Shown here piece after piece: positions 10,495 to 59,336 of a stretch of 64,000 bases of DNA. Made by a program: the position numbers and the translations under genes. Position 1 is the stretch's first letter. The number at the start of each line of letters is the position of its first letter. Origin of the DNA: Patescibacteria group bacterium UBA2196. GTDB taxonomy: Bacteria; Patescibacteriota; Patescibacteriia; UBA2196. The notes below the pieces were generated by a model. That model ran no database searches, was not told the DNA's origin, and saw only the letters and a list, made by a program, of their open reading frames with translations. The stretch spans positions 69,882 to 133,881 of the forward strand of contig DCVE01000014.1 of NCBI GenBank assembly GCA_002328025.1, in the 5' to 3' direction.

Positions 10495-12993
10495 ATGCTA
10501 AAAGAAGGACCATACAACCCACAAGACCATGAAGAAAAAATTTACCAACTTTGGGAGCAAGGTGGTTTTTTTACACCAAGCATTGATCAAGATAAAAAAT
10601 CTTATAGTATTGTTTTGCCGCCACCTAACGTGACTGGTACTTTGCATATTGGACACGCCTTGATGTTGGCCATTGAAGATATTTTAATTCGTTATCACCG
10701 CATGCAAGGTCTTAGAACTTTGTGGTTACCAGGCACAGATCACGCGGCCATTGCCACCCAAAGCAAAGTGGAAAAAAAGATTTATAAAGAAGAGGGTAAG
10801 TCTCGTTATGATTTAGGTCGCGAAGATTTTTTAAAAAGAGTAGAAAAGTTTGCCCAGGAAAGTCATGATACAATTGTGCAACAAACTAAAAGAATGGGCG
10901 CGTCTTTGGATTGGAGCCGAGAGGCTTATACTTTGGATGAAGCGCGCAACAGAGCGGTGAATATGGCTTTTAAAACCATGCATGATGATGGATTAATTTA
11001 TCAGGGCGACAGAGTAATTAATTGGGATCCTAAAGGACAGACTACAATTTCGGATGATGAAGTTGTGCATGTAGAAAGAGAAGCTGCGCTTTACACTTTT
11101 AAATATAGCTCAGATTTTCCTTTTGCTATTGCCACCACTCGTCCAGAAACAAAATTAGGTGATACAGCAGTGGCAGTGCACCCCAATGATGAAAGGTATA
11201 AAAAATTTATTGGCCAAGAATATGATTTAGAATTTTGCAAAGAAAAATTGCATATAAAAATTATTGCTGATGAATCTGTTGATCCAGAATTTGGTACAGG
11301 AGCTCTTGGGGTTACACCAGCTCATAGTCATATTGATTGGGAAATTGCCCAAAGACATAATTTATCTTTAAAACAAATAATTGATGAGAAGACACGGATA
11401 ATTTCTGTTAATGAAAATCTGCAGGGCAAAAAAGTTGAAGAAGCCAGATCCATTATTGTTGAGTGGTTAAAAGAAAATAATCTTTTAATAAAAGAAGAAC
11501 CAATAAAACAAAATGTGGCCACCGCTGAAAGAACAGGAGCTTTAGTTGAACCATTGCCCAAAAAGCAATGGTTTGTGGCCGTGAATAAAGAATTTGTGAT
11601 GAAAGAATCTAAATTAAAAAATATAAAAACCGGTGAAAAGGTGACTTTAAAAAAGTTAATGCGTTCGGTGGTGGAATCTAGTGAAATAAAAATAATGCCC
11701 GAGCAGTTTGAAAAAATATATTTTCACTGGATTGATAATTTGCGTGACTGGTGTATATCAAGGCAAATTTGGTATGGACACCGGGTACCGGTTTACTATA
11801 AAGATCAAGAAATTTGTGTTGGTGCAGAAGCGCCGGTGGGCGACGGTTGGGAACAAGACCCTGACACTTTGGATACTTGGTTTTCTTCTGGCCTATGGAC
11901 TTTTTCCACTTTGGGCTGGCCGATTAATGAAGTGCGTCATTTTCACGAATCATTGGTTGATTTAATTATTAAAGGTGAAAAAGTAAAAACATATCGCTTT
12001 GATGATGAAAGTTACTGTGTTGGTCAGGTTTGGCAATTAGAAAATTCTCAAACACAAGAAAAGTTTGGCTATGCCAAAATCACTAAAGTCAGCCAAGCTA
12101 GATTTGGAGATATTGGATATGGCGCTGAAGGACATGAAAAATACGCTTCCCAAGAAGATATGTATGAAACTTTTAAAAGATACTACCCTGAGAAAGAAAT
12201 TACGGCCGATTCACTCACCTGGATTTATGAATTTGAGTATCAACAAAAGTCTGATTTAGAAACTTTTCACCCCACTGATGTTTTGGAAACCGGTTATGAT
12301 ATTTTATTTTTCTGGGTGGCCAGGATGATTTTGATGACAACGTATTTATTGGGTGACATTCCTTTTAAAACAGTTTATTTGCATGGCTTAATTCGCGATG
12401 CGGAAAGACAAAAAATGAGTAAATCCAAAGACAATGCCGTGGACCCGCTTAGTGTAATTGATGAGCAGGGCGCGGATGCTTTGCGTATGGCCATGGTTTT
12501 TGGCACTGGTCAAGGCAATGATGTGGTTATGACACCAGATAAAATTGTGGCGCAGAAAAAATTTGCCAATAAAATTTGGAATGCCAGCAAGTTTATTTTA
12601 AACAATTTAGGCCAAGAATTTAAACCCGCAGTGGTGAACATTGATCTGTTTAAAAATAGTGATGATAAAGACATTTTAGAAAAATTAGCAGCCACCGTTA
12701 AACAAACTGCCATCAATCTTGATAATTTTATGTTTCATGAGGCAGCTCAGGATATTTATCAATTTTTCTGGCATGATTTGTGTGATGTTTATTTAGAGTC
12801 GGTCAAATCCAGATTGTATGACGAAGAAGGGGAGAGCCAAGAAAATGCGCGCCAAGTTTTATACCACGTTTTGTTAAACAGTTTAAAACTTTTGCATCCA
12901 TTTATGCCGTTTATAACAGAAGTGGTTTATCAAGAATTACCTTATAAAAATAAACAAAGCTTGATTATTGAAGATTGGCCAGTGAATGTATAA
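10495..12993 (+). CDS. valS: valyl-tRNA synthetase carrying an inserted ASCH-like domain
   Basis: PPPNVTGTLHIGHAL (ValRS-type HIGH) and KMSKSKDN. A ~110-aa insertion lies between the conserved ...WFSSGLWTFSTLGWP and FHPTDVLETGYDILFFWVARM blocks. Confidence 0.9.
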   Translation: MLKEGPYNPQDHEEKIYQLWEQGGFFTPSIDQDKKSYSIVLPPPNVTGTLHIGHALMLAIEDILIRYHRMQGLRTLWLPGTDHAAIATQSKVEKKIYKEEGKSRYDLGREDFLKRVEKFAQESHDTIVQQTKRMGASLDWSREAYTLDEARNRAVNMAFKTMHDDGLIYQGDRVINWDPKGQTTISDDEVVHVEREAALYTFKYSSDFPFAIATTRPETKLGDTAVAVHPNDERYKKFIGQEYDLEFCKEKLHIKIIADESVDPEFGTGALGVTPAHSHIDWEIAQRHNLSLKQIIDEKTRIISVNENLQGKKVEEARSIIVEWLKENNLLIKEEPIKQNVATAERTGALVEPLPKKQWFVAVNKEFVMKESKLKNIKTGEKVTLKKLMRSVVESSEIKIMPEQFEKIYFHWIDNLRDWCISRQIWYGHRVPVYYKDQEICVGAEAPVGDGWEQDPDTLDTWFSSGLWTFSTLGWPINEVRHFHESLVDLIIKGEKVKTYRFDDESYCVGQVWQLENSQTQEKFGYAKITKVSQARFGDIGYGAEGHEKYASQEDMYETFKRYYPEKEITADSLTWIYEFEYQQKSDLETFHPTDVLETGYDILFFWVARMILMTTYLLGDIPFKTVYLHGLIRDAERQKMSKSKDNAVDPLSVIDEQGADALRMAMVFGTGQGNDVVMTPDKIVAQKKFANKIWNASKFILNNLGQEFKPAVVNIDLFKNSDDKDILEKLAATVKQTAINLDNFMFHEAAQDIYQFFWHDLCDVYLESVKSRLYDEEGESQENARQVLYHVLLNSLKLLHPFMPFITEVVYQELPYKNKQSLIIEDWPVNV

Positions 12994-18357: not shown

Positions 18358-18534
18358 GTAAAATTTTAAAATCCAAATTTTAAATTTTAAAATAAATCCA
18401 AAATCAAAATTTTAAAATCCAAGACAATGATATGTAAATAAACGTAGATTAATTAGGTTGTCTTTAAATTTAAAATTGAATATTTAAAATTATTTTAAAA
18501 TTTGAGTTTTAAAATTTAAAATTAAAGCGTTTAT

Positions 18535-20741: not shown

Positions 20742-21239
20742 ATGTCCTTAACTTTATTTATGCCCCCTTTTATTCAACGCAATCCAACTGAAATTAATCC
20801 TAGTGATAAATTGGAACATGATTTAGCTGGCATCGAAACAACCACCGTTTTAACTCCAGAAACCAATCAATTAGAGCCAACCACGCAAAGTGACCAGGTT
20901 TTAGTATCGGCTGTTTCTGATATAAATGATGTTCAAAATCAATCTGGAGTTAGTTATAATAAAGATCCTTTACATGTGGCGGTGGAAGATATTTTGGAAG
21001 AAAATTTAGCCAACCTGTATGTGTCTTTAAGTCCAGCTGAACAAATTAATTTTAAAAAGAAAGGTGATGAGACGGCTGGTAAAATTATAAATCTTTTAGC
21101 CACCACCCAGGCCACCTTTAAAAAGATTTTTAATTTTATTCTAATGTGGCTTAAAACAATTCCGGGTGTTAATAAATTTTTTTTGGAACAAGAAGCCAAG
21201 ATCAAGGCTGATAAAATTATGCAACTAAAAATAAACTAA
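20742..21239 (+). CDS. hypothetical protein, immediately upstream of the T4CP-like ATPase
   Basis: 165 aa with an amphipathic C-terminus. No recognisable motifs. The 4-nt gap to the next gene suggests co-transcription. Confidence 0.35.
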   Translation: MSLTLFMPPFIQRNPTEINPSDKLEHDLAGIETTTVLTPETNQLEPTTQSDQVLVSAVSDINDVQNQSGVSYNKDPLHVAVEDILEENLANLYVSLSPAEQINFKKKGDETAGKIINLLATTQATFKKIFNFILMWLKTIPGVNKFFLEQEAKIKADKIMQLKIN

Positions 21240-21244
21240 TTTTT

Positions 21245-23815
21245 ATGTCTCCCTATGTTCCAAACTCACCATTAGAATTAGCTGGTCAGAGTTTTTTTAA
21301 TAGTCCATCTTTTTATGTTGGGCTTTTTTTAATGGCTTTTGTTTTTTTAGCTGTGGTTTTTCTTTTTATTTATCGCGCCCATGCAAGACGTAATTATAAA
21401 TTACCAGCCAAGTACCATCAGGTGGTTTTGTTGGTTTCAATGCCCAAGGAAGCGTTGTCTGATAAAGAGGGTGGCAATGTAAATTCTATTGAAAAAATCC
21501 GTGAACAAATTTCTTGGGCAGAAAATTTATGGGCACAGGTGGGTGGTTTAAAAGCAGAAAAGGGATTCAAAGTTTGGTTGTATGGCCGCCATGACCACAT
21601 ATCTTTAGAAATTGTAGCGCATCAAAAAGTAATTTATTTTTATATCGCAGTACCAAAATATTTGCAAGCCTATCTTGAACAGCAACTACAAGCGCAATAC
21701 TCATATGCTCAAGTTGAAGAAGTTCCTGATTACAATATTTTTTCGCCCGCTGCAACCGTTGTCTGTGCCAGTGTTAAACTTGAAAAACAAAACATGCTTC
21801 AAATTAAAACCTATAAGGAATTTGACGCTGATCCATTAAATTCATTAACTAACATTTTAAGTAAACTTGGGTCTGATGACAGTGCTGCCATTCAGTTTGT
21901 GGTGCGTTCGGCCCATAAAAAATGGCGTACAGTCGGACTAAAAATTGCCGCAGCCATGCAGCAGGGTAAATCTTTAAGAGATGCTTTAAAAGCTAATAAT
22001 AAAGATTTATTAACAATTTTAAGTAAGGGATATAATGCGGTGTTTAGTCAAGAAGACGATAAAAAAAAAGATCAGGATAAAAAAGACGGTTTAACCCCAG
22101 GCAGTTATCGTCTTTCGGCCAAAGAAGAAGAGTTAGTCAAAAAAATTCAAGAAAAAAGCTCCAAAGCTGGTTTAGATGTTAACATCCGTGTGGTTATTAC
22201 TGCGCAAAATTTACCACTAGCTGATGCCTACTTAGCCAATGTTTTAAATTCTTTTGCCCAATATAATGTTTATGAATTTGGCAACGCTTTTAAGGTAGCT
22301 AAAAATAGCGGTGATGATAAAAATATTTCCGCCTTTATTCATCGAATTTTTAATGATAAAAATGGTTTTGTTTTAAATACTGAAGAATTGGCCTCGGTTT
22401 TTCATTTTCCATTACCTTCTTGTGAAACACCCAATATTCACTGGTTGGGTGCACGTAAGGCTGCGGCACCGATTAATATTCCGACCGAAGGTATTGTAAT
22501 TGGTAAAAACATTTTTCGTGGTGGTGAAACACTCATCCGCATGAAACAGGAAGATCGTATGCGTCATACATATATCATTGGTATGACCGGTGCTGGCAAA
22601 TCAGTTTTAATGGAAGAAATGGCCAAACAAGACATTGCGGCTGGTCGGGGAGTTTGTTTTATTGATCCGCACGGTACAGCCATCGATCGCATCATGCCTT
22701 GTATTCCCAAAGAAAGGCTTGAGGATGTTATATACCTTGATCCCTCTGATACAGAACGGCCAATCGGTTTAAATATGTTGGAAGCCAAAACTCAGCAGGA
22801 AATGGATTTTGCCACTTCAGAAATGATTAGTATTTTTTACAAACTTTTACCCGATCCGGCCATGGCTGGACCAATGTTTGAACATTATATGCGCAATGCC
22901 TTGTTGGCTTTAATGGCCGATCAAGATGATCCCGGAACTTTGGTGGAATTGGGACGCATTTTTACTGATGAAGATTATCGTAAGAAAAAGTTACATTATG
23001 TGCGGGATATTTTGGTGAAAGATTTTTGGGAAAGAGAATATACAGCTTCTCAGCGCGGCTCTATGGCTTCAGATATGCTTTCGTATGTCATTTCAAAAAC
23101 GGGTCGTTTTGTTGAAAATGAAATGATGCGTAACATTATTGGTCAATCTATTTCCGGTTTTAACTTTCGCCAAGTCATGGATGAGGGTAAAATTTTGCTA
23201 GTCAATTTATCCAAGGGTAAGATTGGTGAAACCAACAGTAGTCTTTTGGGTCTAATCATTGTTTCAAAATTACAGATGGCCGCCATGGCACGAGCTGATT
23301 TACCGGAAGAAAAAAGAAAAGATTTTATGTTATATATTGATGAGTTTCAAAATTATACCACTGATTCCATGGCCATTATTTTGGCTGAAGCCAGAAAATA
23401 CCGTTTGGCGCTGATCATGGCCCACCAGTATATTACGCAATTAGTCAAAGGTCAAGACACTTCCATTCGAGACGCTGTTTTTGGTAATGTTGGCAGCATG
23501 ATTATTTTCCGTATTGGCGTAGAAGATGCGGAAGTGATTGCCAAACAATTTGCGCCAGTCTTTAATCAACAAGATTTAATTAATATTGAAAAACGCAATG
23601 CCTATGTTAGACTCTTGATTGATGGTACGGTCAGTCGTCCGTTTAACATGGAGTCCATGCCTTGGACATTTGGTGATGAAAAAATTGTAACTGCCATACG
23701 CGAACTTTCTCGTCTAAAATATGGTCGTCCCAAAAATGGGGTTGAAGCGGAAATCATCCGACGGTCTAAAATAGGTGCTTTAAGTAAGGCTGCACTACAC
23801 AATAATGCCGAATAA
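21245..23815 (+). CDS. membrane-anchored FtsK/HerA-superfamily ATPase, TrwB/TraD/VirD4-like (T4CP-like), fused N-module + ATPase
   Basis: N-terminal TM segment (FYVGLFLMAFVFLAVVFLFIY) and a ~380-aa N-module ending ...EELASVFHFP. Walker A IIGMTGAGKS followed by GRGVCFIDPHG...DVIYLDPSDTERPIGLNMLE, which parallels the TrwB block RGDRMVIVDPNGD...DIILNPYDQR...FNEI. Walker B LYIDEFQNY. Arginine-finger/Q block AEARKYRLALIMAHQYITQL. Confidence 0.6.
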   Translation: MSPYVPNSPLELAGQSFFNSPSFYVGLFLMAFVFLAVVFLFIYRAHARRNYKLPAKYHQVVLLVSMPKEALSDKEGGNVNSIEKIREQISWAENLWAQVGGLKAEKGFKVWLYGRHDHISLEIVAHQKVIYFYIAVPKYLQAYLEQQLQAQYSYAQVEEVPDYNIFSPAATVVCASVKLEKQNMLQIKTYKEFDADPLNSLTNILSKLGSDDSAAIQFVVRSAHKKWRTVGLKIAAAMQQGKSLRDALKANNKDLLTILSKGYNAVFSQEDDKKKDQDKKDGLTPGSYRLSAKEEELVKKIQEKSSKAGLDVNIRVVITAQNLPLADAYLANVLNSFAQYNVYEFGNAFKVAKNSGDDKNISAFIHRIFNDKNGFVLNTEELASVFHFPLPSCETPNIHWLGARKAAAPINIPTEGIVIGKNIFRGGETLIRMKQEDRMRHTYIIGMTGAGKSVLMEEMAKQDIAAGRGVCFIDPHGTAIDRIMPCIPKERLEDVIYLDPSDTERPIGLNMLEAKTQQEMDFATSEMISIFYKLLPDPAMAGPMFEHYMRNALLALMADQDDPGTLVELGRIFTDEDYRKKKLHYVRDILVKDFWEREYTASQRGSMASDMLSYVISKTGRFVENEMMRNIIGQSISGFNFRQVMDEGKILLVNLSKGKIGETNSSLLGLIIVSKLQMAAMARADLPEEKRKDFMLYIDEFQNYTTDSMAIILAEARKYRLALIMAHQYITQLVKGQDTSIRDAVFGNVGSMIIFRIGVEDAEVIAKQFAPVFNQQDLINIEKRNAYVRLLIDGTVSRPFNMESMPWTFGDEKIVTAIRELSRLKYGRPKNGVEAEIIRRSKIGALSKAALHNNAE

Positions 23816-23829
23816 TAAAATATATTCTT

Positions 23830-24414
23830 ATGTTAGAAAAACTTTTTGGTTCTCGAACTAGAATAAAACTTCTGAAACTTTTTTTAACGGACAAAAATAG
23901 TAAATTTTTTGTACGTGAAATTACACGACTGACTGGTGAAAAAATAAATTCAATTCGTCGAGAATTAGAAAATTTATCAGAACTTGGTTTACTTGAGGTG
24001 GTTGAAGAAATTCCACTTGATAAAAAAGAAGAAAATAAAAAATTTTATCGTGTTAATAATAATTTTCCTTTATTGTCAGCTTTGCAAGAAATTTTGCTTA
24101 AATCTAGACTTTTGGTGGAAAAAGGTTTAGCAGTCAAGATTGATAAAATAGGTTATGTAAAGTTTTTGGCGCTAAGTGGTTTTTTTGTGAACGATCCACA
24201 GGCTCCCACTGATTTTTTAATTGTTGGGCAGGTGGATAAAAAAAAATTAGCACGTCTGATCAATCAAATTTCCAAAGAGTTTGGACAGGAATTACGCTAT
24301 ACCTGTTTTTCAACTCAAGAATTTAATTATCGTAATAAAATAACGGATAAATTTTTATTTGAAGTTTTGGAGGGTAAAAAAATAGTTGTGCTTGATATTT
24401 TGAGTAAAGAGTAG
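23830..24414 (+). CDS. winged-helix DNA-binding protein fused to a nucleotidyltransferase-like domain
   Basis: N-terminal wHTH (RTRIKLLKLFLTD...VREITRLTGEKINSIRRELENLSELGLL). The C-terminal ...LALSGFF...TDFLIVGQVD resembles a degenerate GS...DxD Pol-beta NTase fold. Confidence 0.4.
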   Translation: MLEKLFGSRTRIKLLKLFLTDKNSKFFVREITRLTGEKINSIRRELENLSELGLLEVVEEIPLDKKEENKKFYRVNNNFPLLSALQEILLKSRLLVEKGLAVKIDKIGYVKFLALSGFFVNDPQAPTDFLIVGQVDKKKLARLINQISKEFGQELRYTCFSTQEFNYRNKITDKFLFEVLEGKKIVVLDILSKE

Positions 24415-24421
24415 CAAAATT

Positions 24422-25102
24422 ATGTTGGAAAGGATACAAAAAATTTTATCACGTCACGGTATAGCTTCTCGTCGTCGGGCCGAGGAGCTAATTTTAGCTG
24501 GAGCTGTTTTTGTTAATGGGCAGGTTGTTAAATTGGGTGATAAGGCTGATGAAGAAAGTGATAGTATAGTGGTTAGGGGTAAAAAAATAACAATAGCGGA
24601 AAAAAATAATTTTGTTTACTATCTTTTAAATAAACCCATAGGTTACGAGTGTTCCCTAAAGGGTCACAATAAAAATACTCAACTGGCAGTTGATTTGGTG
24701 CCCAAAAATCCTCGCGTGTGGACCGTGGGACGTTTGGATAAAGACTCTTCTGGACTTCTGGTTTTGACCAACGATGGACAGTTGACCAATCAATTAACTC
24801 ATCCTAAATTTAAACATGAAAAAGAATATCTTGTTAAAGTCAATAAAAAAATAGAGCCAACTTTTTTAATGGGCTTAAAAAAAGGCGTACACTTGACTGA
24901 AGGTTTGGCCAAAGCGGATGAGGTGCGTCAGGTCACTAAAGATTCTTTTAGTATAATTTTACACCAGGGTTGGAAACGACAAATTAGACGCATGTGTTAT
25001 GCTTTGGGTTACAACGTTCTAACTTTAAACAGGATTAGAATTGGACACTGGCAGTTGGGAAATTTAAAAGTGGGGGAGTATAGGATAATTTCAAATTTAT
25101 AA
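24422..25102 (+). CDS. RsuA/RluB-family rRNA pseudouridine synthase (S4 domain + PUS)
   Basis: S4 domain (RIQKILSRHGIASRRRAEELILAGAVFVNGQ) and the catalytic GRLDKDSSGLLVLTNDG. Confidence 0.8.
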   Translation: MLERIQKILSRHGIASRRRAEELILAGAVFVNGQVVKLGDKADEESDSIVVRGKKITIAEKNNFVYYLLNKPIGYECSLKGHNKNTQLAVDLVPKNPRVWTVGRLDKDSSGLLVLTNDGQLTNQLTHPKFKHEKEYLVKVNKKIEPTFLMGLKKGVHLTEGLAKADEVRQVTKDSFSIILHQGWKRQIRRMCYALGYNVLTLNRIRIGHWQLGNLKVGEYRIISNL

Positions 25103-25122
25103 TTTTCTTTTTTTAAAACTAT

Positions 25123-25578
25123 ATGTATCTTTACTTAAACACAGCTGACTATAAATTTATGACTTTAGGTTTGATTAATATTCAGGGCCAGGTTTTATAT
25201 TTAGAAAAAATAAAAGCTGAGTATCAACAAGCAGAAAAATTATTACTCAATTTGGAGAAAATACTTTTAAATCAAGACAAAAAATGGCGTCTAAGTCTTA
25301 AGGGCGTTATTGCGGTTTTGGGTCCGGGTGGTTTTACATCACTCCGAATTGGTATTGCCACTGCCAATGCTCTGGCTTGGTCTTTGCAAATCCCCATCTG
25401 CGGTGTTAAATTAAAATTTAAAGAAGGCATTATGCCAGAGAAATTACAAGACGGACAATTAATAGGTATAGGTGTTACTAAGTTAAAAAAAATAAAAAAG
25501 TTTAAACAAATACTGCCGTTTTATGGCAGTGGGCCGCATATAACCATAAAAAAACGTCTTGACACACAATCGTTATAG
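25123..25578 (+). CDS. tsaB: TsaB (YeaZ)-like tRNA t6A protein, N-terminal domain only
   Basis: ...IAVLGPGGFTSLRIGIATANALAWSLQIPICGV matches the TsaB/Kae1-fold N-lobe. Much shorter than typical TsaB. Confidence 0.5.
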   Translation: MYLYLNTADYKFMTLGLINIQGQVLYLEKIKAEYQQAEKLLLNLEKILLNQDKKWRLSLKGVIAVLGPGGFTSLRIGIATANALAWSLQIPICGVKLKFKEGIMPEKLQDGQLIGIGVTKLKKIKKFKQILPFYGSGPHITIKKRLDTQSL

Positions 25579-25615
25579 CGATAAAATAAGTATAAATTAA
25601 TTTAAAAGTATTTTT

Positions 25616-27283
25616 ATGAGTTTATCAACCAAATCACAGAACCGCTATAAGTTGGCTGGTATTATTGTTTTAGCCATTTTTTGCGCGCTGATTGTTTATC
25701 CAAAAGTTCCCACCAGTACTCCATTGGAAAGTTTTTGGAATAAGTTTAAATTTCGTTTAGGCCTTGACTTGCAGGGCGGAGCGCATTTGGTCTATCAGGC
25801 TGACACCAGCCAGGTTGATGGGCGCGATCAAGCTTCAGCCGTGGCTGGTGTACGCGATGTTATTGAAAGACGTGTGAATGCTTTTGGGGTTTCTGAGCCA
25901 GTGGTGCAAACAAACATGGTTGGTAATGATTACCGTGTAATTGTAGAATTGGCTGGTGTTAAAGATGTTGATCAAGCTATTCAGATGATTGGTGAAACAC
26001 CTCTTTTAGAATTTAAAACTCAAAATCCAAACTATTCCGACGAGTTGACGAATACTCAAAAAACAGAATTAGAAAAATATAATAGTGCACAAAAAAACAA
26101 AGCCGAAGAAGTTTTAAAAGAAGCTCTGGTAAAAAATGTTAACTTTGAAAATTTAGCTAAACAATATTCTGAAGATCCAGGCTCAAAAGATCAGGGCGGT
26201 GATTTGGGTTGGGCCAAAAGAGGCATGTTTGTTAAGGAATTTGAAGATGAAATTTTTGATATTTTACAACCTGGTCAAACCTCACAAATTTTAGTTAAAA
26301 CCAGTTTTGGTTATCATGTTATTAAGAAAATTGCAGTGCGCGGCGAGGGTGCGGATTTAGAAGTTCATGCGCAACATATTTTATTTAAAACACGAAATGA
26401 AGCCGATATTGTTTCTGTTGCTAATCAGTGGCTTAATACTCAACTATCAGGCAAGAACTTAACGCGCGCTCAGGTGCAGTTTGATACGCAATCCGGCGAA
26501 CCTCAGGTAGGCCTAGAATTTAATGATGAGGGTAAAACATTGTTTGCCGAAATTACCGAACAAAATGTTGGCAAACCTGTGGCTATTTTTTTGGATGGCC
26601 AGCCCATTTCTGTGCCCAGAGTTGACGAGCCCATTAAAGAAGGCAAAGCGGTTATTAGTGGCCGTTTTAATATTAAAGAAGCCAAACAATTGGTGGAACG
26701 TTTAAATGCCGGTGCTTTACCAGTCCCAATCACTTTGATTTCGCAAGAAACAGTTGGTGCCTCGCTGGGGCAGGAATCTTTGGATAAAAGCTTATTTGCT
26801 GGTGTTGTTGGTTTAATTGCCGTGGCCTTGTTTATGCTATTTTTTTATCGTCTGCCTGGCTTAATTTCAGTGTTTGCCTTAATTATTTATGCTTTAATTA
26901 ACTTAACGCTTTATAAAACCTTATCTCTAACCCTAACTTTGGCTGGTATCGCTGGCTTTATTCTGTCAGTTGGAATGGCAGTTGATGCTAACGTGTTAAT
27001 TTTTGAACGTCTAAAAGAAGAGTTAAAAGCCGGTCGCGAAGTTGCCTCAGCGGTTGATGAGGGTTTTAAAAGAGCTTGGACTTCCATTCGTGATTCAAAT
27101 ATTTCATCGCTCATAACTTGTGTTATTTTGTATTGGATAGGTACTTCAATGGTTAAGGGTTTTGCTTTAACCTTGGCATTGGGTGTTTTAATTTCTTTAT
27201 TTTCTGCCATTACTGTCACCAGAACCTTTTTAAAACTTTTCTTAATTAAATCTTTTAAAGATAAAAAATGGCTTTTCGGCTAA
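25616..27283 (+). CDS. secD: protein translocase subunit SecD with an inserted parvulin-type PPIase domain
   Basis: TM1, then LGLDLQGGAHLVYQ, ...IGETPLLEFK, and the C-terminal 6-TM SecD core. A PpiC-like segment sits between the P1 blocks (NFENLAKQYSEDPGSKDQGGDLGWAKRGMFVKEFEDEIFDILQPGQTSQILVKTSFGYHVIKK). Confidence 0.85.
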   Translation: MSLSTKSQNRYKLAGIIVLAIFCALIVYPKVPTSTPLESFWNKFKFRLGLDLQGGAHLVYQADTSQVDGRDQASAVAGVRDVIERRVNAFGVSEPVVQTNMVGNDYRVIVELAGVKDVDQAIQMIGETPLLEFKTQNPNYSDELTNTQKTELEKYNSAQKNKAEEVLKEALVKNVNFENLAKQYSEDPGSKDQGGDLGWAKRGMFVKEFEDEIFDILQPGQTSQILVKTSFGYHVIKKIAVRGEGADLEVHAQHILFKTRNEADIVSVANQWLNTQLSGKNLTRAQVQFDTQSGEPQVGLEFNDEGKTLFAEITEQNVGKPVAIFLDGQPISVPRVDEPIKEGKAVISGRFNIKEAKQLVERLNAGALPVPITLISQETVGASLGQESLDKSLFAGVVGLIAVALFMLFFYRLPGLISVFALIIYALINLTLYKTLSLTLTLAGIAGFILSVGMAVDANVLIFERLKEELKAGREVASAVDEGFKRAWTSIRDSNISSLITCVILYWIGTSMVKGFALTLALGVLISLFSAITVTRTFLKLFLIKSFKDKKWLFG

Positions 27284-27315
27284 ATTTTTGTACTAAAGAA
27301 AAAATAAATTAAAAA

Positions 27316-28254
27316 TTGTTTACTATGAATTTACACATCGTTAAAAATCGCAATTATTTTTTCATTTTTTCCGGAATTATTGTATTTGCCAGTTTGTTAA
27401 GTTTATATTTTTGGGGTTTAAAACCAGGTATTGATTTTACGGGTGGTTCTTTTTTAGAAATTAAATTAAACAATCAAAATCAAGTTAATGCTCAAGAAAT
27501 GGCCGCTCAAATTCAGAGTACCCTGCCAGATATTGGTGAGGTGCGTATACAGTCGACCACCAATGGTTTTATCGCGCGTTCTCGTCACCTAACAGAAACC
27601 CAGCATCAAACCATATTAGCCATTGTGGCTAAATTATATCCACCTAACGAGAAAGATAACGTGCAGGTTTGGGAAGAAACAAGATTTGAATCAGTTGGAC
27701 CCATGATTGGGGTTGAATTAAAAAACAAAGCCATCTGGGCATTGGCGTTAGCCATGGTGGCTATAATTTTATACATCGCTTGGTCATTCCGCAAGGTGTC
27801 GCGACCGGTGGCTTCTTGGAAATACGGCGTTGGTGCGGTGATCGCTCTGATGCACGATTTAATAATTGTGGCCGGTGCGTTTGCTATTTTTGGACATTTT
27901 TTTGGCTATGAAATTGATTTATTATTTGTTTCAGCTCTGCTCACCATCCTTGGCTTTTCCGTGCATGATACAATTGTGGTGTATGATCGTACGCGCGAAA
28001 ATTTGATTTATAGTCCACAAAAAACTTTTGATGAAACTTTAAATAAAGCCATAAATGAAACCATACATCGTTCTATTAATACCTCTTTAACCGTGTTTTT
28101 GGTGCTTCTATCCCTTTATATTTTAGGTGGCGTGTCAACACAAAATTTTGTTTTAGCTTTAATGATTGGTGTGATTATTGGTACTTACTCGTCAATTTTT
28201 GTCGCTTCAAATTTATTGATTGTTTGGCAGCGTTTGGGAAGTCAAAAAAATTAA
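27316..28254 (+). CDS. secF: protein translocase subunit SecF
   Basis: N-terminal TM, a small periplasmic domain and a 5-TM SecF core (...IDLLFVSALLTILGFSVHDTIVVYDR...). Confidence 0.85.
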   Translation: MFTMNLHIVKNRNYFFIFSGIIVFASLLSLYFWGLKPGIDFTGGSFLEIKLNNQNQVNAQEMAAQIQSTLPDIGEVRIQSTTNGFIARSRHLTETQHQTILAIVAKLYPPNEKDNVQVWEETRFESVGPMIGVELKNKAIWALALAMVAIILYIAWSFRKVSRPVASWKYGVGAVIALMHDLIIVAGAFAIFGHFFGYEIDLLFVSALLTILGFSVHDTIVVYDRTRENLIYSPQKTFDETLNKAINETIHRSINTSLTVFLVLLSLYILGGVSTQNFVLALMIGVIIGTYSSIFVASNLLIVWQRLGSQKN

Positions 28255-28298
28255 TTATATTAAATTTTTTGAGTTGGGCTTGTTTAAATAAGCTAAGT

Positions 28299-28335
28299 GG
28301 TGGGCAGGTTTTATACCTGCCCACCTTGTTTATTT
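28299..28335 (+). terminator. rho-independent terminator after secF
   Basis: 11-bp stem ggtgggcaggt / acctgcccacc, 5-nt loop, then TTGTTTATTT. Confidence 0.6.
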
Positions 28336-28362
28336 GACATACTAAAATAAATCTGTTATACT
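28334..28362 (+). promoter_or_regulatory. sigma70-like promoter (TTGACA-N17-TATACT)
   Basis: TTGACA 28334-28339 and TATACT 28357-28362, about 50 nt upstream of the 28413 gene. Confidence 0.45.
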
Positions 28363-28412
28363 AATTTTATAATCTTAAATTTTAAATAAAATTAGCTAAA
28401 ATAAGTAAAAAT

Positions 28413-29540
28413 ATGACTGATATTTTGGATAAAGTTATCTCTTCAGCCGATTTTAAAGAGAAAACAGCCATTTCGTGGATAGAGGTTGTAAATTCTTTAT
28501 TGGCTTTAATTAAGGCGCGTGAGGCCGAAATTTTGCGTTTACGTTCTGGGTTATATGAAAACAAAGAACATACATTGGAAGAAATCGGACGTAAAATGAA
28601 TTTGACTCGCGAACGAGTGCGTCAATTGGAGAAAAACGCCAAGGAAGACATTAAAGCGCATAAAAATTTTGATGGTATTATAGCACCGGCTAAAAATGCG
28701 GTAGAACGGGCTTTAAATGAACATGGTGGTCTCTCCACCAAAGAAAGGATTTTACAGACTGTTCTTATTAATTATGAAATAGAGGACAATAAAAAGTTTT
28801 TGCAATTTTTAATTGATAATTTTATTGATAAAGCGCAAGATGTTAAAAATGATCAGTTTGGTGAGGGGTGGCATTTAAATGCACAATATTTAAATTTGGC
28901 AGCCGAAGTTTTGGAGCAGATTAAAATTTTAATCGAAACTAAAAATAATTTAGTGCAAGAAGATGAATTGCTGGAAAATTTTCAAAAAACAGATTTTTAT
29001 AAAAATAATCAAGATAAATTTTTAAATTTTTTAAGCAAAAACGGTAATGATTTAAGAAAGGTTTTAACTTCTTATTTGGATTTATCGCATGAATTTGACA
29101 AGACCCCCTTTAAACAGTGGGGCAAAGCTGATTGGCGTACTATCACTCCACGCAGAATTAATGATAAAATTTATTCAATTTTGGATTGGTATAAACAACC
29201 AATGCATTTTCGTGATATTGCTGACAAAATTAATGCCGCCAAGTTTGATAAAAAAATCGCACATTCGGCCACCATTCATAATGACCTAATTGCTGACGAA
29301 CGTTTTGTTTTAATTGGACGCGGTGTCTATGCGTTAAAAGATTGGGGTTATAAAAGCGGTGTGGTGGCTGATTTAATTGAACAGATTATTGAAAATGCTG
29401 AACAGCCTTTAAATAAAGAAGAAATTGTTGCTGAGGTTTTAAAACAAAGAGACGTTAAAGCTAACACTGTTTTATTAGCGCTTAATAAAGACGGTCGTTT
29501 TGAAAAGACTATTACTGGCGGATTTAAGATAAAGGCATAA
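28413..29540 (+). CDS. sigma-70 region-4-like HTH domain protein (not a complete sigma factor)
   Basis: ...AREAEILRLRSGLYENKEHTLEEIGRKMNLTRERVRQLEKNA is a textbook sigma70 region 4.2 HTH. No regions 2 or 3 are detectable. A long C-terminal region of unknown function follows. Confidence 0.5.
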   Translation: MTDILDKVISSADFKEKTAISWIEVVNSLLALIKAREAEILRLRSGLYENKEHTLEEIGRKMNLTRERVRQLEKNAKEDIKAHKNFDGIIAPAKNAVERALNEHGGLSTKERILQTVLINYEIEDNKKFLQFLIDNFIDKAQDVKNDQFGEGWHLNAQYLNLAAEVLEQIKILIETKNNLVQEDELLENFQKTDFYKNNQDKFLNFLSKNGNDLRKVLTSYLDLSHEFDKTPFKQWGKADWRTITPRRINDKIYSILDWYKQPMHFRDIADKINAAKFDKKIAHSATIHNDLIADERFVLIGRGVYALKDWGYKSGVVADLIEQIIENAEQPLNKEEIVAEVLKQRDVKANTVLLALNKDGRFEKTITGGFKIKA

Positions 29541-29548
29541 TTTTTTAA

Positions 29549-29592
29549 AAACACCCACTCCAATAATTATTGGGGTAGGTGTTTTTATTTTG
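29549..29592 (+). terminator. rho-independent terminator
   Basis: Hairpin acacccactcc-aataatt-attggggtaggtgt (inner perfect palindrome ccaataattattgg) followed by TTTTTATTTT. Confidence 0.5.
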
Positions 29593-29658
29593 TATATTTT
29601 ATGATATTATGTATTATATATATTCTTTATCCAATTTATAATATAATTCATATTATAT

Positions 29659-31071
29659 ATGGAATTTATTTTGAGTTTATTTAATTTAGACATTGTTAGC
29701 CTATCTGCTTTGGGTGCGCATAATCCTTTTTATCTAATTTGGTTTTTCTTTATTCACGGCGGTTGGGTGCTTTTTATTATCACTTTTATATTTCTTAGCC
29801 CAGTTCTATGGATGGACTGGCGTCAGGGATTGTATGCCAAGACCATTAAGTGGGTTTTTTTAGCCATTGATGTTCCAAGAAATAACGAACAATCACCCAA
29901 GGCAATAGAACAAATTTTTAATCAAATTTGGGGCTCTATAACCGATTATACACTTTGGGCTAAGTTATGGCAGGGTAAATTTATGCCAAGTTTCAGTCTG
30001 GAATTAGTTTCTATTGATGGTTATATACAATATATTATTCGTACACCCAAACAGTGGCGTGATTTAATTGAGTCAGCTGTCTATGCGCAATATCCAGACG
30101 CTGAAATAGCCGAAATTGAAGATTATACCAAAGACTTTACACCAAATAATTTTATAGAAAAAGGTTATGATTTGTGGGGTACGCAATTGCAATTGACCAA
30201 TCTGGAATACTATCCCATTCGAACCTATCCTTTTTTTGAACATTCCATTGCCAAAAAAATAGTTGATCCTATGTCGGCTTTACTCGAAATGATGAGCAAA
30301 TTAGGTCGCGGCGAACAATTGTGGTACCAGATTATAATTAAACCGGTTGGTGATGATGTCTGGAAAATCAATGCTGAAAAATTAGTTAAGAAATTAATTG
30401 GTGCCGAAACCAAAGAAGAAGCCCAGACTATTCTGGATAATATTTTTAGCCGGCTTTATAATACCACTAATTTTTTATTACCCTTGCAAAGCACCGAACA
30501 AAAAAAAGAACAAAAATTACCTTCCAAAGTTCTTTACATGTCGAAGGGTGAGTTGGAAACGGTGGCGGCCATTGAGATGAAAGCTTCCAAGACCGGTTTT
30601 AAGACCAAAATGCGCATGATTTATATTGGCAAAAAAGACGCATTTTTTAAACCACGTGGTTTGTCACCGTTTTTTGGTGCTTTGCGACAATATGCCGGAA
30701 CTAACGGTTTTAAACCAGCCGGTAAAACAGCCACCAAAGCTGAGTATTTTTTTATTAAACCGCGCCTGTTGTATAAACAAAAGAGAATTTTGAAGCACTA
30801 TAAATCACGAGCATTAGATGCGGGGGTCAAAGAAGACGGTTATCTCTTAAATGTGGAAGAATTAGCTTCTGTCTACCACTTTCCTAGTATTGAAGTACCA
30901 ACCAAGATGGTGCACACTTCTTTAAGTAAAAAGGTTCAAGCACCCATGAACATTCCTTTTGATGATTTTTCCGAACCAGAAATTTTTATTAAAAAAGAAC
31001 CCCAGTCTCCAGAGAATGATACAAATAATACTGGATCAACCATGGCTCCGCCTCCAAATTTACCCATTTAA
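29659..31071 (+). CDS. membrane N-module homologous to the N-terminal half of the 21245-23815 ATPase (split-gene partner)
   Basis: TM helices (YLIWFFFIHGGWVLFIITFIFLSPVLW). A soluble domain ends ...VEELASVYHFPSIEVPT...APMNIPFDDF, colinear with ...TEELASVFHFPLPSCETP...APINIPTEG of the fused paralog. Confidence 0.5.
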   Translation: MEFILSLFNLDIVSLSALGAHNPFYLIWFFFIHGGWVLFIITFIFLSPVLWMDWRQGLYAKTIKWVFLAIDVPRNNEQSPKAIEQIFNQIWGSITDYTLWAKLWQGKFMPSFSLELVSIDGYIQYIIRTPKQWRDLIESAVYAQYPDAEIAEIEDYTKDFTPNNFIEKGYDLWGTQLQLTNLEYYPIRTYPFFEHSIAKKIVDPMSALLEMMSKLGRGEQLWYQIIIKPVGDDVWKINAEKLVKKLIGAETKEEAQTILDNIFSRLYNTTNFLLPLQSTEQKKEQKLPSKVLYMSKGELETVAAIEMKASKTGFKTKMRMIYIGKKDAFFKPRGLSPFFGALRQYAGTNGFKPAGKTATKAEYFFIKPRLLYKQKRILKHYKSRALDAGVKEDGYLLNVEELASVYHFPSIEVPTKMVHTSLSKKVQAPMNIPFDDFSEPEIFIKKEPQSPENDTNNTGSTMAPPPNLPI

Positions 31072-31080
31072 TTTTTTTGT

Positions 31081-33036
31081 ATGATTGTCTACGACCACGA
31101 TCATGATCGTGAAATAACATATTTCGCTGCCACAAATTTCCGCAATCAAATGCTAAAATTTGGCATAAAAACCGAAGATCGTCGGAGGCATGTTTATATT
31201 CTTGGTAAAACCGGCAGTGGTAAAACGACTCTGGAAGCCAATATGGCTCTGCAAGATATTGAGCGCGGTCATGGCATGTGTTTGGTGGATCCACATGGTG
31301 ATGTTTTAAATTCTGTTTTGGATTACATTCCATCTCATCGTGTTAATGATGTAATCTATTTTAATCCATCCGATACTGCTTACCCCATTGCTTTTAATAT
31401 TTTAGAAAACATCAATCCTGAACATAAGCATTTGGTGGCTTCTGGTTTAATGAGCGTCTTTAAAAAGATTTGGGCCAATCTGTGGTCGGCGCGTATGGAA
31501 TATATTTTAAATAATTGTATTTTGGCTCTTTTAGATTCACCCGGCAATACATTATTAGGCATTATGCGCATACTTACAGATAAAGATTTCCGTCGTAAAA
31601 TTGTGGATAACATTAAAGATCCAGTGGTTAAATCTTTTTGGGTCAATGAATATGCTAATTATCAGGATCGATTTCGTCAGGAAGCTATTGCGCCAATTCA
31701 AAATAAAGTTGGACAATTTTTATCTTCGGCTGTCATTCGTAACATTGTTGGCCAAACCAAATCTACCATTGAACCCAGAAAAATAATTGATGAGGGAAAA
31801 ATTTTACTGCTTGACTTAGCTAAGGGTAAGATTGGTGAAGACAATTCTTCTTTGTTAGGAGCCATGATGATTACTAAGATTTGGTTGGCTGCCATGTCAC
31901 GTGTGGATGTGCCGGAAAGTGAACGGCTTGATTTTTATTTATACGTGGATGAATTTCAGAATTTTGCCACTGAATCTTTTGCTGACATTTTGTCTGAAGC
32001 CAGAAAATATCGTTTAAATTTAACTGTGGCGCATCAATATATTGCTCAACTTGTTTCGCCAGATTCCACCCGTGTTAAAGATGCGGTTTTTGGCAACGTG
32101 GGTACTATAATTTGTTTTCGTGTTGGCGGCGGCGACGCTAAAGAGTTAATTAAAGAATTTGAACCGACTTTTTTGGAAGAAGATCTAGTTAATATTGGTA
32201 AACACGAAATATTTTTAAAACTAATGATTGATGGTATGGCCTCGGCGCCTTTTAGCGCCAAAACTTTACCGCCACTTTCCACTGGTCGTGAAAATAAAAA
32301 TCGTGAAAAAATTGTTCGTATTTCGCGTGAACGTTATTCTAACACCAAAGAAGAAGTTGAAGAAAAAATTATGCGTTGGTCGGGTGTAGAAGAAATGTTT
32401 AAAGAAACTGCCAAAGCCGAATATGTGGATGAAGAAAAGATGGTCTATAAAGAAGCTGAAATTAAAACCAATAATTCAAGTAATATAAAAAAAATAGCTG
32501 AAACAAAATCTGCGGCAGTACGGGAAGTTCAGACAGATGACAAAAAATATTTGGATGCTTTTTGTGACAATTGCGGTCAACCAACTCGCATTAACTTTTT
32601 ACCAGATTTAAGTAAAGCAATTTTTTGCCGCAATTGCTTGAAAGAATTTAAAAAAGGCAGTATTGATCCACATAAATTAAAATCTAAGAACAGTCATCTT
32701 TTGGACACCGTTAAACAACAACAGATGGGTGCAGCGACAACCTTAATACCCCCAGAAGTGACTATTTTATCCACTCAAAACACAAAAGTCTTGGAAAAAA
32801 GTTTGGTATCTGCTAAAGTTATAACATCCATATCACCTGATCAGGTTTTAACAGCTAAAACCAAAAAGGCAAAAATAAACTTTTTGGACAGTCTAAAATA
32901 TAAGCCGGAAGAAAAAAGTCAACCAACCGTTGACTTAGATGCTTTAAAAGATATAAATCAAGTGGTGCCTTTTAATAAATTTGGAACAAAAAAGGAACCT
33001 CAAAAGATTAATCCCGGGCAGGTGATAAGGTTTTAA
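31081..33036 (+). CDS. TrwB/TraD/VirD4-like (T4CP-like) ATPase, stand-alone, with a C-terminal zinc-ribbon extension
   Basis: Walker A ILGKTGSGKT, then GHGMCLVDPHGD...DVIYFNPSDTAYPIAFNILE. Walker B LYVDEFQNF. SEARKYRLNLTVAHQYIAQL. GNVGTIICFRVGG. The extra ~250-aa tail contains CDNCGQPTRINF...IFCRNCL. Confidence 0.6.
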   Translation: MIVYDHDHDREITYFAATNFRNQMLKFGIKTEDRRRHVYILGKTGSGKTTLEANMALQDIERGHGMCLVDPHGDVLNSVLDYIPSHRVNDVIYFNPSDTAYPIAFNILENINPEHKHLVASGLMSVFKKIWANLWSARMEYILNNCILALLDSPGNTLLGIMRILTDKDFRRKIVDNIKDPVVKSFWVNEYANYQDRFRQEAIAPIQNKVGQFLSSAVIRNIVGQTKSTIEPRKIIDEGKILLLDLAKGKIGEDNSSLLGAMMITKIWLAAMSRVDVPESERLDFYLYVDEFQNFATESFADILSEARKYRLNLTVAHQYIAQLVSPDSTRVKDAVFGNVGTIICFRVGGGDAKELIKEFEPTFLEEDLVNIGKHEIFLKLMIDGMASAPFSAKTLPPLSTGRENKNREKIVRISRERYSNTKEEVEEKIMRWSGVEEMFKETAKAEYVDEEKMVYKEAEIKTNNSSNIKKIAETKSAAVREVQTDDKKYLDAFCDNCGQPTRINFLPDLSKAIFCRNCLKEFKKGSIDPHKLKSKNSHLLDTVKQQQMGAATTLIPPEVTILSTQNTKVLEKSLVSAKVITSISPDQVLTAKTKKAKINFLDSLKYKPEEKSQPTVDLDALKDINQVVPFNKFGTKKEPQKINPGQVIRF

Positions 33037-58913: not shown

Positions 58914-59336
58914 ATGTACAAAAAAATAATAATTTTTACCGATGGGGGAGCCAGAAACAATCCAGGTCCAGCCGGGATTGGAGTGGTATTTTTTATTGCC
59001 GAAAATTTAACTAAACCCTTGGCAACTCATAAAAAATATATTGGTTTAACCACCAATAATCAAGCTGAATATAAAGCTGTGGTGTTGGCCTTAGAGGAAG
59101 CTAAAAAAATAAAAGCTCAGGAAATCGAAGTAAGACTTGATTCGGAATTGGTTTGCAATCAAATTAATGGTCAATTTAAATTAAAAAATAAAGATTTCCA
59201 GGATAGTTTTATTAAAATATGGAATTTAAGACAAGGCTTTAAAAAATCAATTTTTAAACATATTCCACGTGAACAAAATAAGTTAGCTGATAAACTGGTC
59301 AACCAAGCCATTGATGAAGCTAATATAAATTATTGA
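58914..59336 (+). CDS. rnhA: ribonuclease HI
   Basis: IIIFTDGGARNNPGPAGIGVV... DSELVCNQI matches the RNase H DEDD core. Confidence 0.85.
   Translation: MYKKIIIFTDGGARNNPGPAGIGVVFFIAENLTKPLATHKKYIGLTTNNQAEYKAVVLALEEAKKIKAQEIEVRLDSELVCNQINGQFKLKNKDFQDSFIKIWNLRQGFKKSIFKHIPREQNKLADKLVNQAIDEANINY

Follow-up and report, generated by a model that had tools for sequence, protein, structure and literature searches.

What are two membrane-anchored ATPase modules resembling type IV coupling proteins (T4CPs), one fused and one split, doing among the core genes of a patescibacterial chromosome? Patescibacteria are a very large, mostly uncultured, host-dependent bacterial group. The DNA analyzed here, referred to as the window, is a stretch of 64,000 nucleotides from Patescibacteria group bacterium UBA2196 (contig DCVE01000014.1, forward strand, positions 69,882 to 133,881), in which the gene for an 856-aa protein (paralog F) is followed, beyond secD and secF, by two adjacent genes encoding proteins of 470 and 651 aa (paralog S). 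Very probably, both modules belong to a separate T4CP subfamily, descend from an ancient duplication and have been inherited vertically; in this subfamily, a domain catalogued as DUF8128 (PF26449) replaces the usual short N-terminal membrane domain. In Patescibacteria, 5,713 VirD4-type T4CP homologs have been counted in 2,918 of 3,035 genomes, about two per genome, and this group's type IV secretion system (T4SS) is the only one that is known to be indispensable to the carrier (PMC12102498 for the counts and for essentiality).

By sequence comparison, the fused protein and the gene pair are colinear paralogs, far above chance, as had been claimed by the original prediction. The N-modules were aligned by BLASTP over residues 27-413 of the fused protein and 38-433 of the 470-aa protein with 24% identity (E=1e-23), the ATPases over residues 424-848 and residues 20-441 of the 651-aa protein with 44% identity (E=1e-120). 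Both N-modules end in a junction motif, EELASVFHFP...APINIP in F and EELASVYHFP...APMNIP in S. The ATPases share Walker A (GMTGAGKS in F, GKTGSGKT in S), the Walker B region (LYIDEFQNY, LYVDEFQNF) and the blocks GRGVCFIDPHG/GHGMCLVDPHG, DVIYLDPSD/DVIYFNPSD and ARKYRLALIMAHQYITQL/ARKYRLNLTVAHQYIAQL. All motifs quoted in the prediction were recovered from the translations, and its open reading frame (ORF) coordinates were correct.

Profile searches place the ATPases within the FtsK-HerA superfamily, on its TrwB/VirD4 (T4CP) side. Both passed the Pfam cutoffs for TrwB_AAD_bind (38.0 bits for F and 41.5 for S, cutoff 20.5, the match covering profile positions 9-335 of 387), T4SS-DNA_transf (27.7 and 24.2 bits, cutoff 20.1) and TraG-D_C (22.0 for F and 26.3 for S, cutoff 22); neither reached the Pfam thresholds of VirB4, FtsK or HerA. 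When a profile of 77 orthologs was run against all PDB sequences, TrwB (8e-6) ranked first and DotL (7e-5) next, VirB4 being absent. The predicted position on the VirD4/TrwB side was thus borne out, and a placement in VirB4, HerA or FtsK did not occur. AAA_10 and CagE_TrbE_VirB gave no match (Pfam), while the true VirB4s of the plasmids discussed below match AAA_10 at 8e-85, and the VirB4 model TIGR00929, with a cutoff of 643 bits, aligned with only about 20 residues near the P-loop and scored 26.9 and 16 bits. The named T4CP equivalogs of NCBIfam likewise stayed far under their cutoffs (SXT_TraD 42-49 vs 366 bits, conju_CD1115 25-45 vs 250, CedD 23-36 vs 600). Neither FtsK_SpoIIIE nor the gamma domain was matched by any window protein (Pfam), which separates the ATPases from FtsK/SpoIIIE, and judged by the HerA central domain, the N-terminal HAS barrel and the NurA partner, they are not members of HerA. 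Sets of 77 and 81 orthologs show no variation in Walker A, Walker B and additional catalytic positions. In the AlphaFold2 model of paralog F (pLDDT 86.7, pTM 0.74), seven helices at residues 517-632 are predicted to form an all-alpha insertion (approximately residues 515-635) between core strands. In NCBI records, the ATPases are already listed as T4SS DNA-binding-domain proteins, and the database protein P0121, 100% identical to paralog F, carries the precomputed assignments PF26449, PF10412 and PF02534. The paralog S ATPase additionally matches TIGR04272 (NCBIfam) and zf_Tbcl_2 (Pfam, 32.4 bits). PADLOC assigned both ATPases to mad8 (1e-19 and 3.5e-16); a role in anti-phage defence of the MADS type was rejected, as only the ATPase fold is shared, no other MADS component was found and the conserved core-gene order speaks against a defence island.

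For the N-module, PF26449 is present on nearly every homolog, among them P0121 and P0001 (94% identical to the 470-aa protein); this assignment stems from precomputed database annotation, the model not being part of the Pfam set used for the window scan. NCBIfam and PADLOC yielded no match for the N-module. Each N-module has one predicted transmembrane (TM) helix followed by positive charge (net +4 in paralog F), and because of the positive-inside rule, the DUF8128 domain and the ATPase are predicted to be cytoplasmic. In paralog S, the predicted anchor is located on a separate polypeptide and the ATPase is devoid of hydrophobic segments. The modeled DUF8128 domain of paralog F is mixed alpha/beta with high pLDDT. 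The N-module models were confident and template-free, and in a Foldseek search the top 14 matches were all TrwK chains (probability 1.0). DUF8128 therefore probably folds like the N-terminal domain of VirB4, a fold resemblance that probably, though not provably, reflects homology, since a sequence-level signal is lacking. In VirB4, the N-terminal domain is embedded in the inner membrane, connects protomers with one another and makes contact with VirB3 and VirB8 (PMC12857230). A profile of the fused family compared with single TrsE (VirB4) and TrsK (VirD4) sequences gave about 84% hhalign probability for both and is hence uninformative.

To assess the spread of the two paralogs, relatives were scanned with one genome per species. 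At least 584 species possess a relative; in the best 80, whose informative names comprise Kuenen-, Kerfeld-, Buchanan-, Falkow-, Komeili-, Uhr- and Magasanikbacteria, gene order was compared and found to be conserved. An exhaustive HMMER search yielded 3,464 clusters at 50% identity, and fused orthologs are 52-68% identical across lineages (candidate phyla). Numerous metagenome-assembled genomes titled 'uncultured Gammaproteobacteria bacterium' (L001, L005, L007 and many others) show the same order of secDF, the sigma-4/HARE gene described below, DUF8128 and ATPase as the named Patescibacteria; these titles are submitter labels and look like mislabels.

A bootstrapped neighbor-joining (NJ) tree, based on simple distances between the ATPase domains of 32 sequences, TrsK left out, united all sequences of the candidate phyla radiation (CPR) in one clade (100%) with two paralog subclades (100% each), and set the DUF8128-T4CP group apart from the VirB4s at 98%. 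Clade S comprises the split ATPases of ABY1 together with single-chain proteins of WS5 (1107 aa), WWE3 (942 aa) and another lineage (P0395, 969 aa), which carry DUF8128. In 65 of 73 ABY1 loci, the N-module gene is succeeded by the ATPase gene, usually after a gap of 2-12 nt, and all 69 real cases are split; one locus with both parts in a single ORF (L017) turned out to be an artefact of a masked N-run. The original prediction had pointed to a fusion or a fission. That one copy is fused and the other split was confirmed, and because the WS5 and WWE3 relatives in clade S are unsplit, the split form can be attributed to a gene fission that took place in ABY1. The split N-module has diverged faster, as the unsplit S proteins obtain nearly the same scores with either of the two N-modules of the window. 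The recommended survey of related genomes has thus revealed conserved neighbors as well as fused and split forms. In one CPR lineage, tandem DUF8128 proteins of 809 and 969 aa (L091, 4798-7227 and 8001-10910) lie on either side of a 245-aa gene, and secDF is encoded on the opposite strand at a distance of about 1.6 kb; the 809-aa protein has Walker A, but neither a Walker B by simple pattern nor an ATPase Pfam match on record, and may be degenerate.

Both copies are anciently duplicated, vertically inherited and chromosomal. The two modules sit in the core chromosome without marks of an island. The window consists of core genes (hrcA-grpE-dnaK-dnaJ, mreBCD, secA, tRNA synthetases, greA, recJ), its GC content is flat throughout (0.31-0.39), and the gene for PBP2 starts 8 nt downstream of paralog S. 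Among the 52 window ORFs scanned with Pfam, VirB-type, relaxase and integrase genes were not found, in line with the prediction that the locus has core-gene neighbors and need not be a plasmid relic. Flanks of 8-10 kb around the related chromosomal loci inspected likewise contained no relaxase or T4SS channel genes. Flanking (att) repeats were not detected in the window, and its only tRNA gene is distant. A mobile-element or phage origin of the window copies was rejected on account of the flat GC content, the lack of att repeats and of a tRNA border, and a search of 2.9 million viral contigs that gave a single trivial match of 38 residues.

Relatives outside Patescibacteria are found on plasmids of the conjugative type. 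In tblastn searches of the fused protein against PLSDB, 697 records were obtained, most prominently from Bacillus (373) and Streptomyces (102), but also from Staphylococcus, Clostridium, haloarchaea and Sulfolobus; the alignments start at residues ~116-170 and thus include the N-module. On the B. subtilis plasmid NZ_OX419581, a 913-aa homolog, whose precomputed Pfam annotation includes PF26449, is located directly upstream of a replication-relaxation (relaxase-family) gene and about 4.5 kb from a Tcp-type cluster with its own VirB4-like ATPase, TcpF. The linear Embleya plasmid NZ_CP108778 has the order PrgI/VirB3, VirB4, 812-aa homolog, relaxase and NlpC/P60 hydrolase. On the Halomontanus plasmid NZ_CP119798, the match spans a 391-aa hypothetical gene and a 1026-aa TraM-recognition ATPase, i.e. 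a split form. A profile of the N-module aligned with the Bacillus protein at 96.3% and with the haloarchaeal one at 91.7% hhalign probability, the EELA..H.P motif being in register, and more weakly with the Embleya protein (30%). On this haloarchaeal plasmid (L087, 4327-7656 and 8818-11898), TraM-recognition ATPases of 1109 and 1026 aa flank the 391-aa DUF8128-like gene, and the 1109-aa ATPase groups nearer to the VirB4s in the NJ tree. The DUF8128 family is a coupling-protein subtype of monoderm and archaeal elements, in agreement with published work that derives the T4SS of Patescibacteria from the MPF_FATA class (PMC12102498). The position of the homologs in the coupling-protein slot beside relaxases of Bacillus, actinobacterial and haloarchaeal plasmids suggests an ancestral role as coupling protein.

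Each paralog is accompanied by a conserved neighbor. For paralog F, the original prediction had named the 194-aa helix-turn-helix (HTH)/nucleotidyltransferase protein as partner. This candidate was dismissed, since the gene is not conserved at this position, dnaX usually lying downstream instead, and a nucleotidyltransferase signal was not found in the protein; in PADLOC it hit the candidate defence family PDC-M05A (E=5.5e-21), and HTH_20 was matched weakly. It is the upstream 165-aa protein (p165) that is conserved: in L037, L081, L082 and L083, the gene that immediately precedes the fused ortholog encodes a product 48-50% identical to residues 74-165 of p165, and the order corA (minus strand), small protein, fused gene recurs across independent genomes. 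Matches of p165 to Pfam, NCBIfam or PADLOC were not obtained.

The sigma region-4 protein predicted as partner of paralog S fared better. It matches Sigma70_r4 (1.5e-11) and HARE-HTH (6.9e-8) in Pfam, and in 49 of 73 loci its gene lies directly upstream of paralog S. The unsplit protein of WS5 is directly preceded by a full-length ortholog (34% identity over 371 aa, E=4e-53), and because this pairing was retained there while all other neighbors differ, the sigma-4/HARE protein is the best-supported functional partner. Just upstream of this WS5 pair (L090, 2947-6161), topA and the competence gene dprA, encoding DNA processing protein A, are located, and the dcw cluster adjoins the locus. By contrast, secD-secF, which in 35 of 57 loci are found upstream of the split pair at a distance of up to 2.5 kb, are absent from the WS5 and WWE3 contexts. 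The prediction that the modules bracket secDF is correct as regards conserved gene order only; co-transcription of secDF with paralog S was rejected, as a consensus scan placed a strong terminator-like hairpin and a promoter-like site between them (28299..28362). The tails of the S proteins are also distinctive. A CxxC...CxxC zinc finger occurs in the ATPase tail of 45 of 70 paralog S orthologs and in none of the 77 paralog F proteins, and in the unsplit WWE3 protein this position is taken by an S1 domain. In 52 of 81 orthologs, the split N-module terminates with a conserved PPxNLP motif, which may serve as a docking peptide.

From these data, a T4SS-linked nucleic-acid motor can be proposed as mechanism, tentatively and with somewhat less than even confidence. 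Each paralog would form a hexameric ATPase ring tethered to the cytoplasmic face of the membrane; the ring of paralog S would assemble once the ATPase has docked in trans on its N-module. DUF8128 would act as a membrane-proximal scaffold like the N-terminal domain of VirB4, joining protomers and docking the ring to membrane partners. Such partners might be VirB3/VirB6/VirB8-like components of the Patescibacteria T4SS, with genes located elsewhere, and p165 in the case of paralog F. ATP hydrolysis would then drive a polymer, most probably nucleic acid, through or to a conduit, the substrate being selected via the C-terminal tail and the sigma-4/HARE-HTH protein, and the two paralogs might serve different substrates or directions. 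The preference for nucleic acid is due to the zinc-finger (ABY1) and S1 (WWE3) tails, the DNA-binding sigma-4/HARE partner, retained in different classes and in spite of the fission, and the presence of dprA and topA beside the WS5 locus. Taken as a whole, identity and mechanism together are the best explanation of the locus, for which the chances appear even.

Several observations weigh against this explanation. T4SS channel genes are missing from the 64-kb window, and a mere 148 of the 5,713 patescibacterial T4CP genes lie near virB4 (PMC12102498). In S. epibionticum, a T4CP homolog, which may or may not be of the DUF8128 type, is non-essential for epibiotic growth while other T4SS genes are essential (PMC12102498). 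The TrwK match has low global TM-scores (~0.3) and relies on one solved VirB4; the N-module profile found no match among all PDB sequences and reached 0.4% hhalign probability against TrsD of pSK41. Moreover, the WWE3 S1 fusion is represented by a single cluster, zinc finger and sigma-4/HARE gene do not co-vary (Fisher p=1.0), and the tree is a simple NJ analysis of 32 sequences.

The main rival, which we consider unlikely, is a DNA translocase independent of the T4SS, acting alone or with another channel on double- or single-stranded DNA, either clearing or segregating the chromosome during division, as FtsK does, or importing or exporting DNA, with the sigma-4/HARE-HTH protein loading the motor like the gamma domain of FtsK. 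The remoteness of T4CP genes from virB4 and the dispensability of a T4CP where the T4SS is essential suit this possibility, and exaptation was left possible by the authors who reported them (PMC12102498). T4CPs are moreover related to the double-stranded DNA pumps FtsK and SpoIIIE (PMC12857230). Paralog S also adjoins genes for cell wall and division (the PBP2 gene next to it, mreBCD in the window, dcw in WS5), and the DNA-binding partner and the nucleic-acid-type tail domains would suit a translocase equally. However, FtsK_SpoIIIE and gamma domains are not detectable in the window proteins by Pfam, and Patescibacteria in general probably have FtsK, as suggested by its mention in papers on the Saccharibacterium TM7x (term counts). 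In addition, the plasmid relatives occupy the slot of a coupling protein beside a VirB4, and the VirB4-like N-domain suggests docking to membrane partners of the T4SS type.

A protein translocation motor, tied to the Sec pathway or to effector export in the manner of DotL, is quite improbable. It would give the position of secDF, also seen beside the tandem paralogs of L091, a functional meaning; some T4CPs such as DotL recruit protein effectors (PMC12857230), and epibionts are expected to inject into their hosts or to extract from them. Yet secF is parted from the paralog S unit by the terminator-like and promoter-like sites, secDF is missing in WS5 and WWE3 while sigma-4/HARE persists in WS5, genes for chaperones or adaptors resembling DotM/N or IcmSW were not seen, and the tail domains are of nucleic-acid-binding types. 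Even less probable are divergent VirB4-type assembly ATPases of about 850 aa, consisting of a VirB4-like N-domain and an ATPase, that would power T4SS or pilus assembly. The fold of the N-module matches only the VirB4 N-terminal domain and the TrsD + TrsE split of pSK41 resembles the split pair, but VirB4 models align merely with the P-loop of the ATPases, the N-module profile does not match TrsD, the tree separates DUF8128 proteins from VirB4s, and the plasmids bearing homologs possess a separate canonical VirB4, just as Patescibacteria have a VirB4 clade of their own with about one member per genome (PMC12102498). Finally, a decaying, functionless remnant of an integrated conjugative element or plasmid, to which the plasmid relatives and the lack of T4SS genes nearby might point, is close to refuted by the invariant catalytic residues, the 52-68% identity across candidate phyla with conserved core-gene order, the lack of integrase, relaxase, tRNA border, att repeats and GC shift, and the virtual absence of viral matches.

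Returning to the T4SS-linked motor, a more far-reaching scenario can be envisaged, though it is rather improbable. DUF8128 coupling proteins might have kept a two-domain layout already present in the ancestor that VirB4 and VirD4 share, and might form an evolutionary link between these two signature ATPases of the T4SS, the N-domain having been lost from proteobacterial VirD4/TrwB. The two Patescibacteria motors might have been fixed early as housekeeping nucleic-acid translocases, one of them guided by an RNA-polymerase-like sigma-4/HARE-HTH adaptor, and together they might acquire host nucleotides. It has been stated that Patescibacteria must have an 'alternative system to acquire nucleotides', comEC being dispensable (PMC12102498).

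The positions of all features of the locus are compiled in the following table.

Table. Features of the two DUF8128-ATPase modules and of the genes and sites between and beside them (window coordinates)
Feature	Position	Strand	Remarks
p165, 165 aa	20742..21239	+	without family match; conserved partner upstream of paralog F; stop 5 nt before paralog F start
Paralog F, single chain of DUF8128 and T4CP-type ATPase, 856 aa	21245..23815	+	BLASTP, Pfam, AlphaFold2
Paralog F, sole N-terminal TM helix (predicted), residues 24-42	21314..21370	+	hydropathy scan, mean Kyte-Doolittle value 2.86
Paralog F, DUF8128 domain, ~residues 55-415	21407..22489	+	ends in the junction motif EELASVFHFP...APINIP
Paralog F, T4CP-type P-loop ATPase, ~residues 417-850	22493..23794	+	Walker A GMTGAGKS, Walker B LYIDEFQN
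194-aa HTH protein	23830-24414		downstream of paralog F
secD	25616-27283		between the two modules
secF	27316-28254		between the two modules
Terminator-like hairpin, 11 bp stem, 8 GC pairs	28299-28325	+	consensus scan
Promoter-like site TTGACA-17-TATACT with TG	28334-28362	+	consensus scan
Sigma-70 region 4 + HARE-HTH protein, 375 aa	28413..29540	+	conserved partner upstream of paralog S
Paralog S, N-module gene, 470 aa	29659..31071	+	TM helix (predicted), DUF8128, disordered tail ending PPPNLPI
Paralog S, N-module TM helix (predicted), residues 26-44	29734-29790	+	
Paralog S, ATPase gene, 651 aa	31081..33036	+	low-complexity tail; without TM segment
Paralog S, T4CP-type ATPase domain, residues 20-441	31138-32403	+	
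Paralog S, treble-clef zinc finger, residues 489-521	32545-32643	+	

Some further features of the window were noted at a distance from the two modules. Between the genes for ribosomal protein L25 and DUF3048, a 167-aa protein with a type IV pilin-like N_methyl motif (Pfam, 3e-9; 935-1438) is followed by an unannotated 171-aa ORF (1450-1965); such pilin-like genes bear on the epibiotic lifestyle. A class I aminoacyl-tRNA synthetase of 832 aa (10495-12993) contains an inserted ASCH domain at residues 482-581 (Pfam, 6.4e-10), an unusual insertion for this enzyme. Upstream of dnaJ, the intergenic region 18369-18526 harbors AT-rich tandem-like repeats (AAATCCAAATTTTAAATTTTAAAAT and variants) that may be a regulatory element of the heat-shock cluster. 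Between recJ and greA, a 140-aa protein with an RNase H/RVT_3 domain is encoded (58914-59336).

The suggestion that the locus represents an undescribed system could not be upheld, since the ATPases already bear the NCBI annotation as T4SS proteins, their homologs and odd distribution were reported in 2025 (PMC12102498) and the N-module is a catalogued Pfam domain. The literature searched, which does not mention PF26449 or DUF8128, yielded no account of a VirB4-like fold for DUF8128, of its defining a coupling-protein subtype that plasmids of monoderms and archaea share, of two paralogs with a fission specific to one lineage, or of the specific partners. Orphan coupling-protein genes, about two in almost every genome, whose role the literature left open, form a distinct subfamily with a probably VirB4-like N-domain. 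Both paralogs are ancient, have intact catalytic residues and are each associated with a specific conserved partner, and in ABY1 the anchor and the motor of one of them are naturally separated. The finding also bears on the divergence of VirB4 and VirD4. For experiments, it offers the membrane partners of DUF8128, the ligands of the zinc-finger and S1 tails and of sigma-4/HARE, and the dependence of the motors on the T4SS as handles.

Compared to known systems, the window proteins are close to the coupling proteins VirD4/TrwB/TraD, e.g. TrwB of R388 and DotL of Legionella. They share the FtsK-HerA P-loop ATPase with its all-alpha insertion, pass the Pfam thresholds for T4CPs, and possess an N-terminal membrane anchor and a C-terminal extension as in TraD. 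However, TrwB has two TM helices and no large N-domain, while the window proteins combine one predicted TM helix with a DUF8128 domain of ~360 residues. Unlike the genes of the classical systems, those in the window are chromosomal and duplicated, have neither a relaxase nor a T4SS nearby, and encode anchor and motor of one paralog separately. The DUF8128 coupling proteins of plasmids agree with the window proteins in the two-module architecture, the EELA..H.P motif and the existence of fused and split forms, and group with them at 98% bootstrap support. They differ in that their ATPases are only 23-31% identical and that they are plasmid-borne beside a replication-relaxation gene and canonical VirB4/VirB3, the Patescibacteria forming a 100% clade of their own. 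VirB4 (TrwK of R388, VirB4 of Thermoanaerobacter pseudethanolicus) has a similar layout, its membrane-associated N-domain preceding an ATPase that belongs to the same clade, but neither window domain matches VirB4 models by sequence, the VirB4s of the same plasmids form a separate clade, and an adjacent VirB3 is missing. TrsD and TrsE of pSK41/pGO1 set a precedent for adjacent genes encoding a VirB4-N-like protein and an ATPase (TrsD is described in PMC12102498); yet the N-module profile does not match TrsD, TrsD has 227 aa compared to the 470 aa of the window protein, and TrsE is a VirB4, not a T4CP. A much weaker likeness exists to EccE and the FtsK-like EccC of the type VII secretion system, which is a different system of other taxa.

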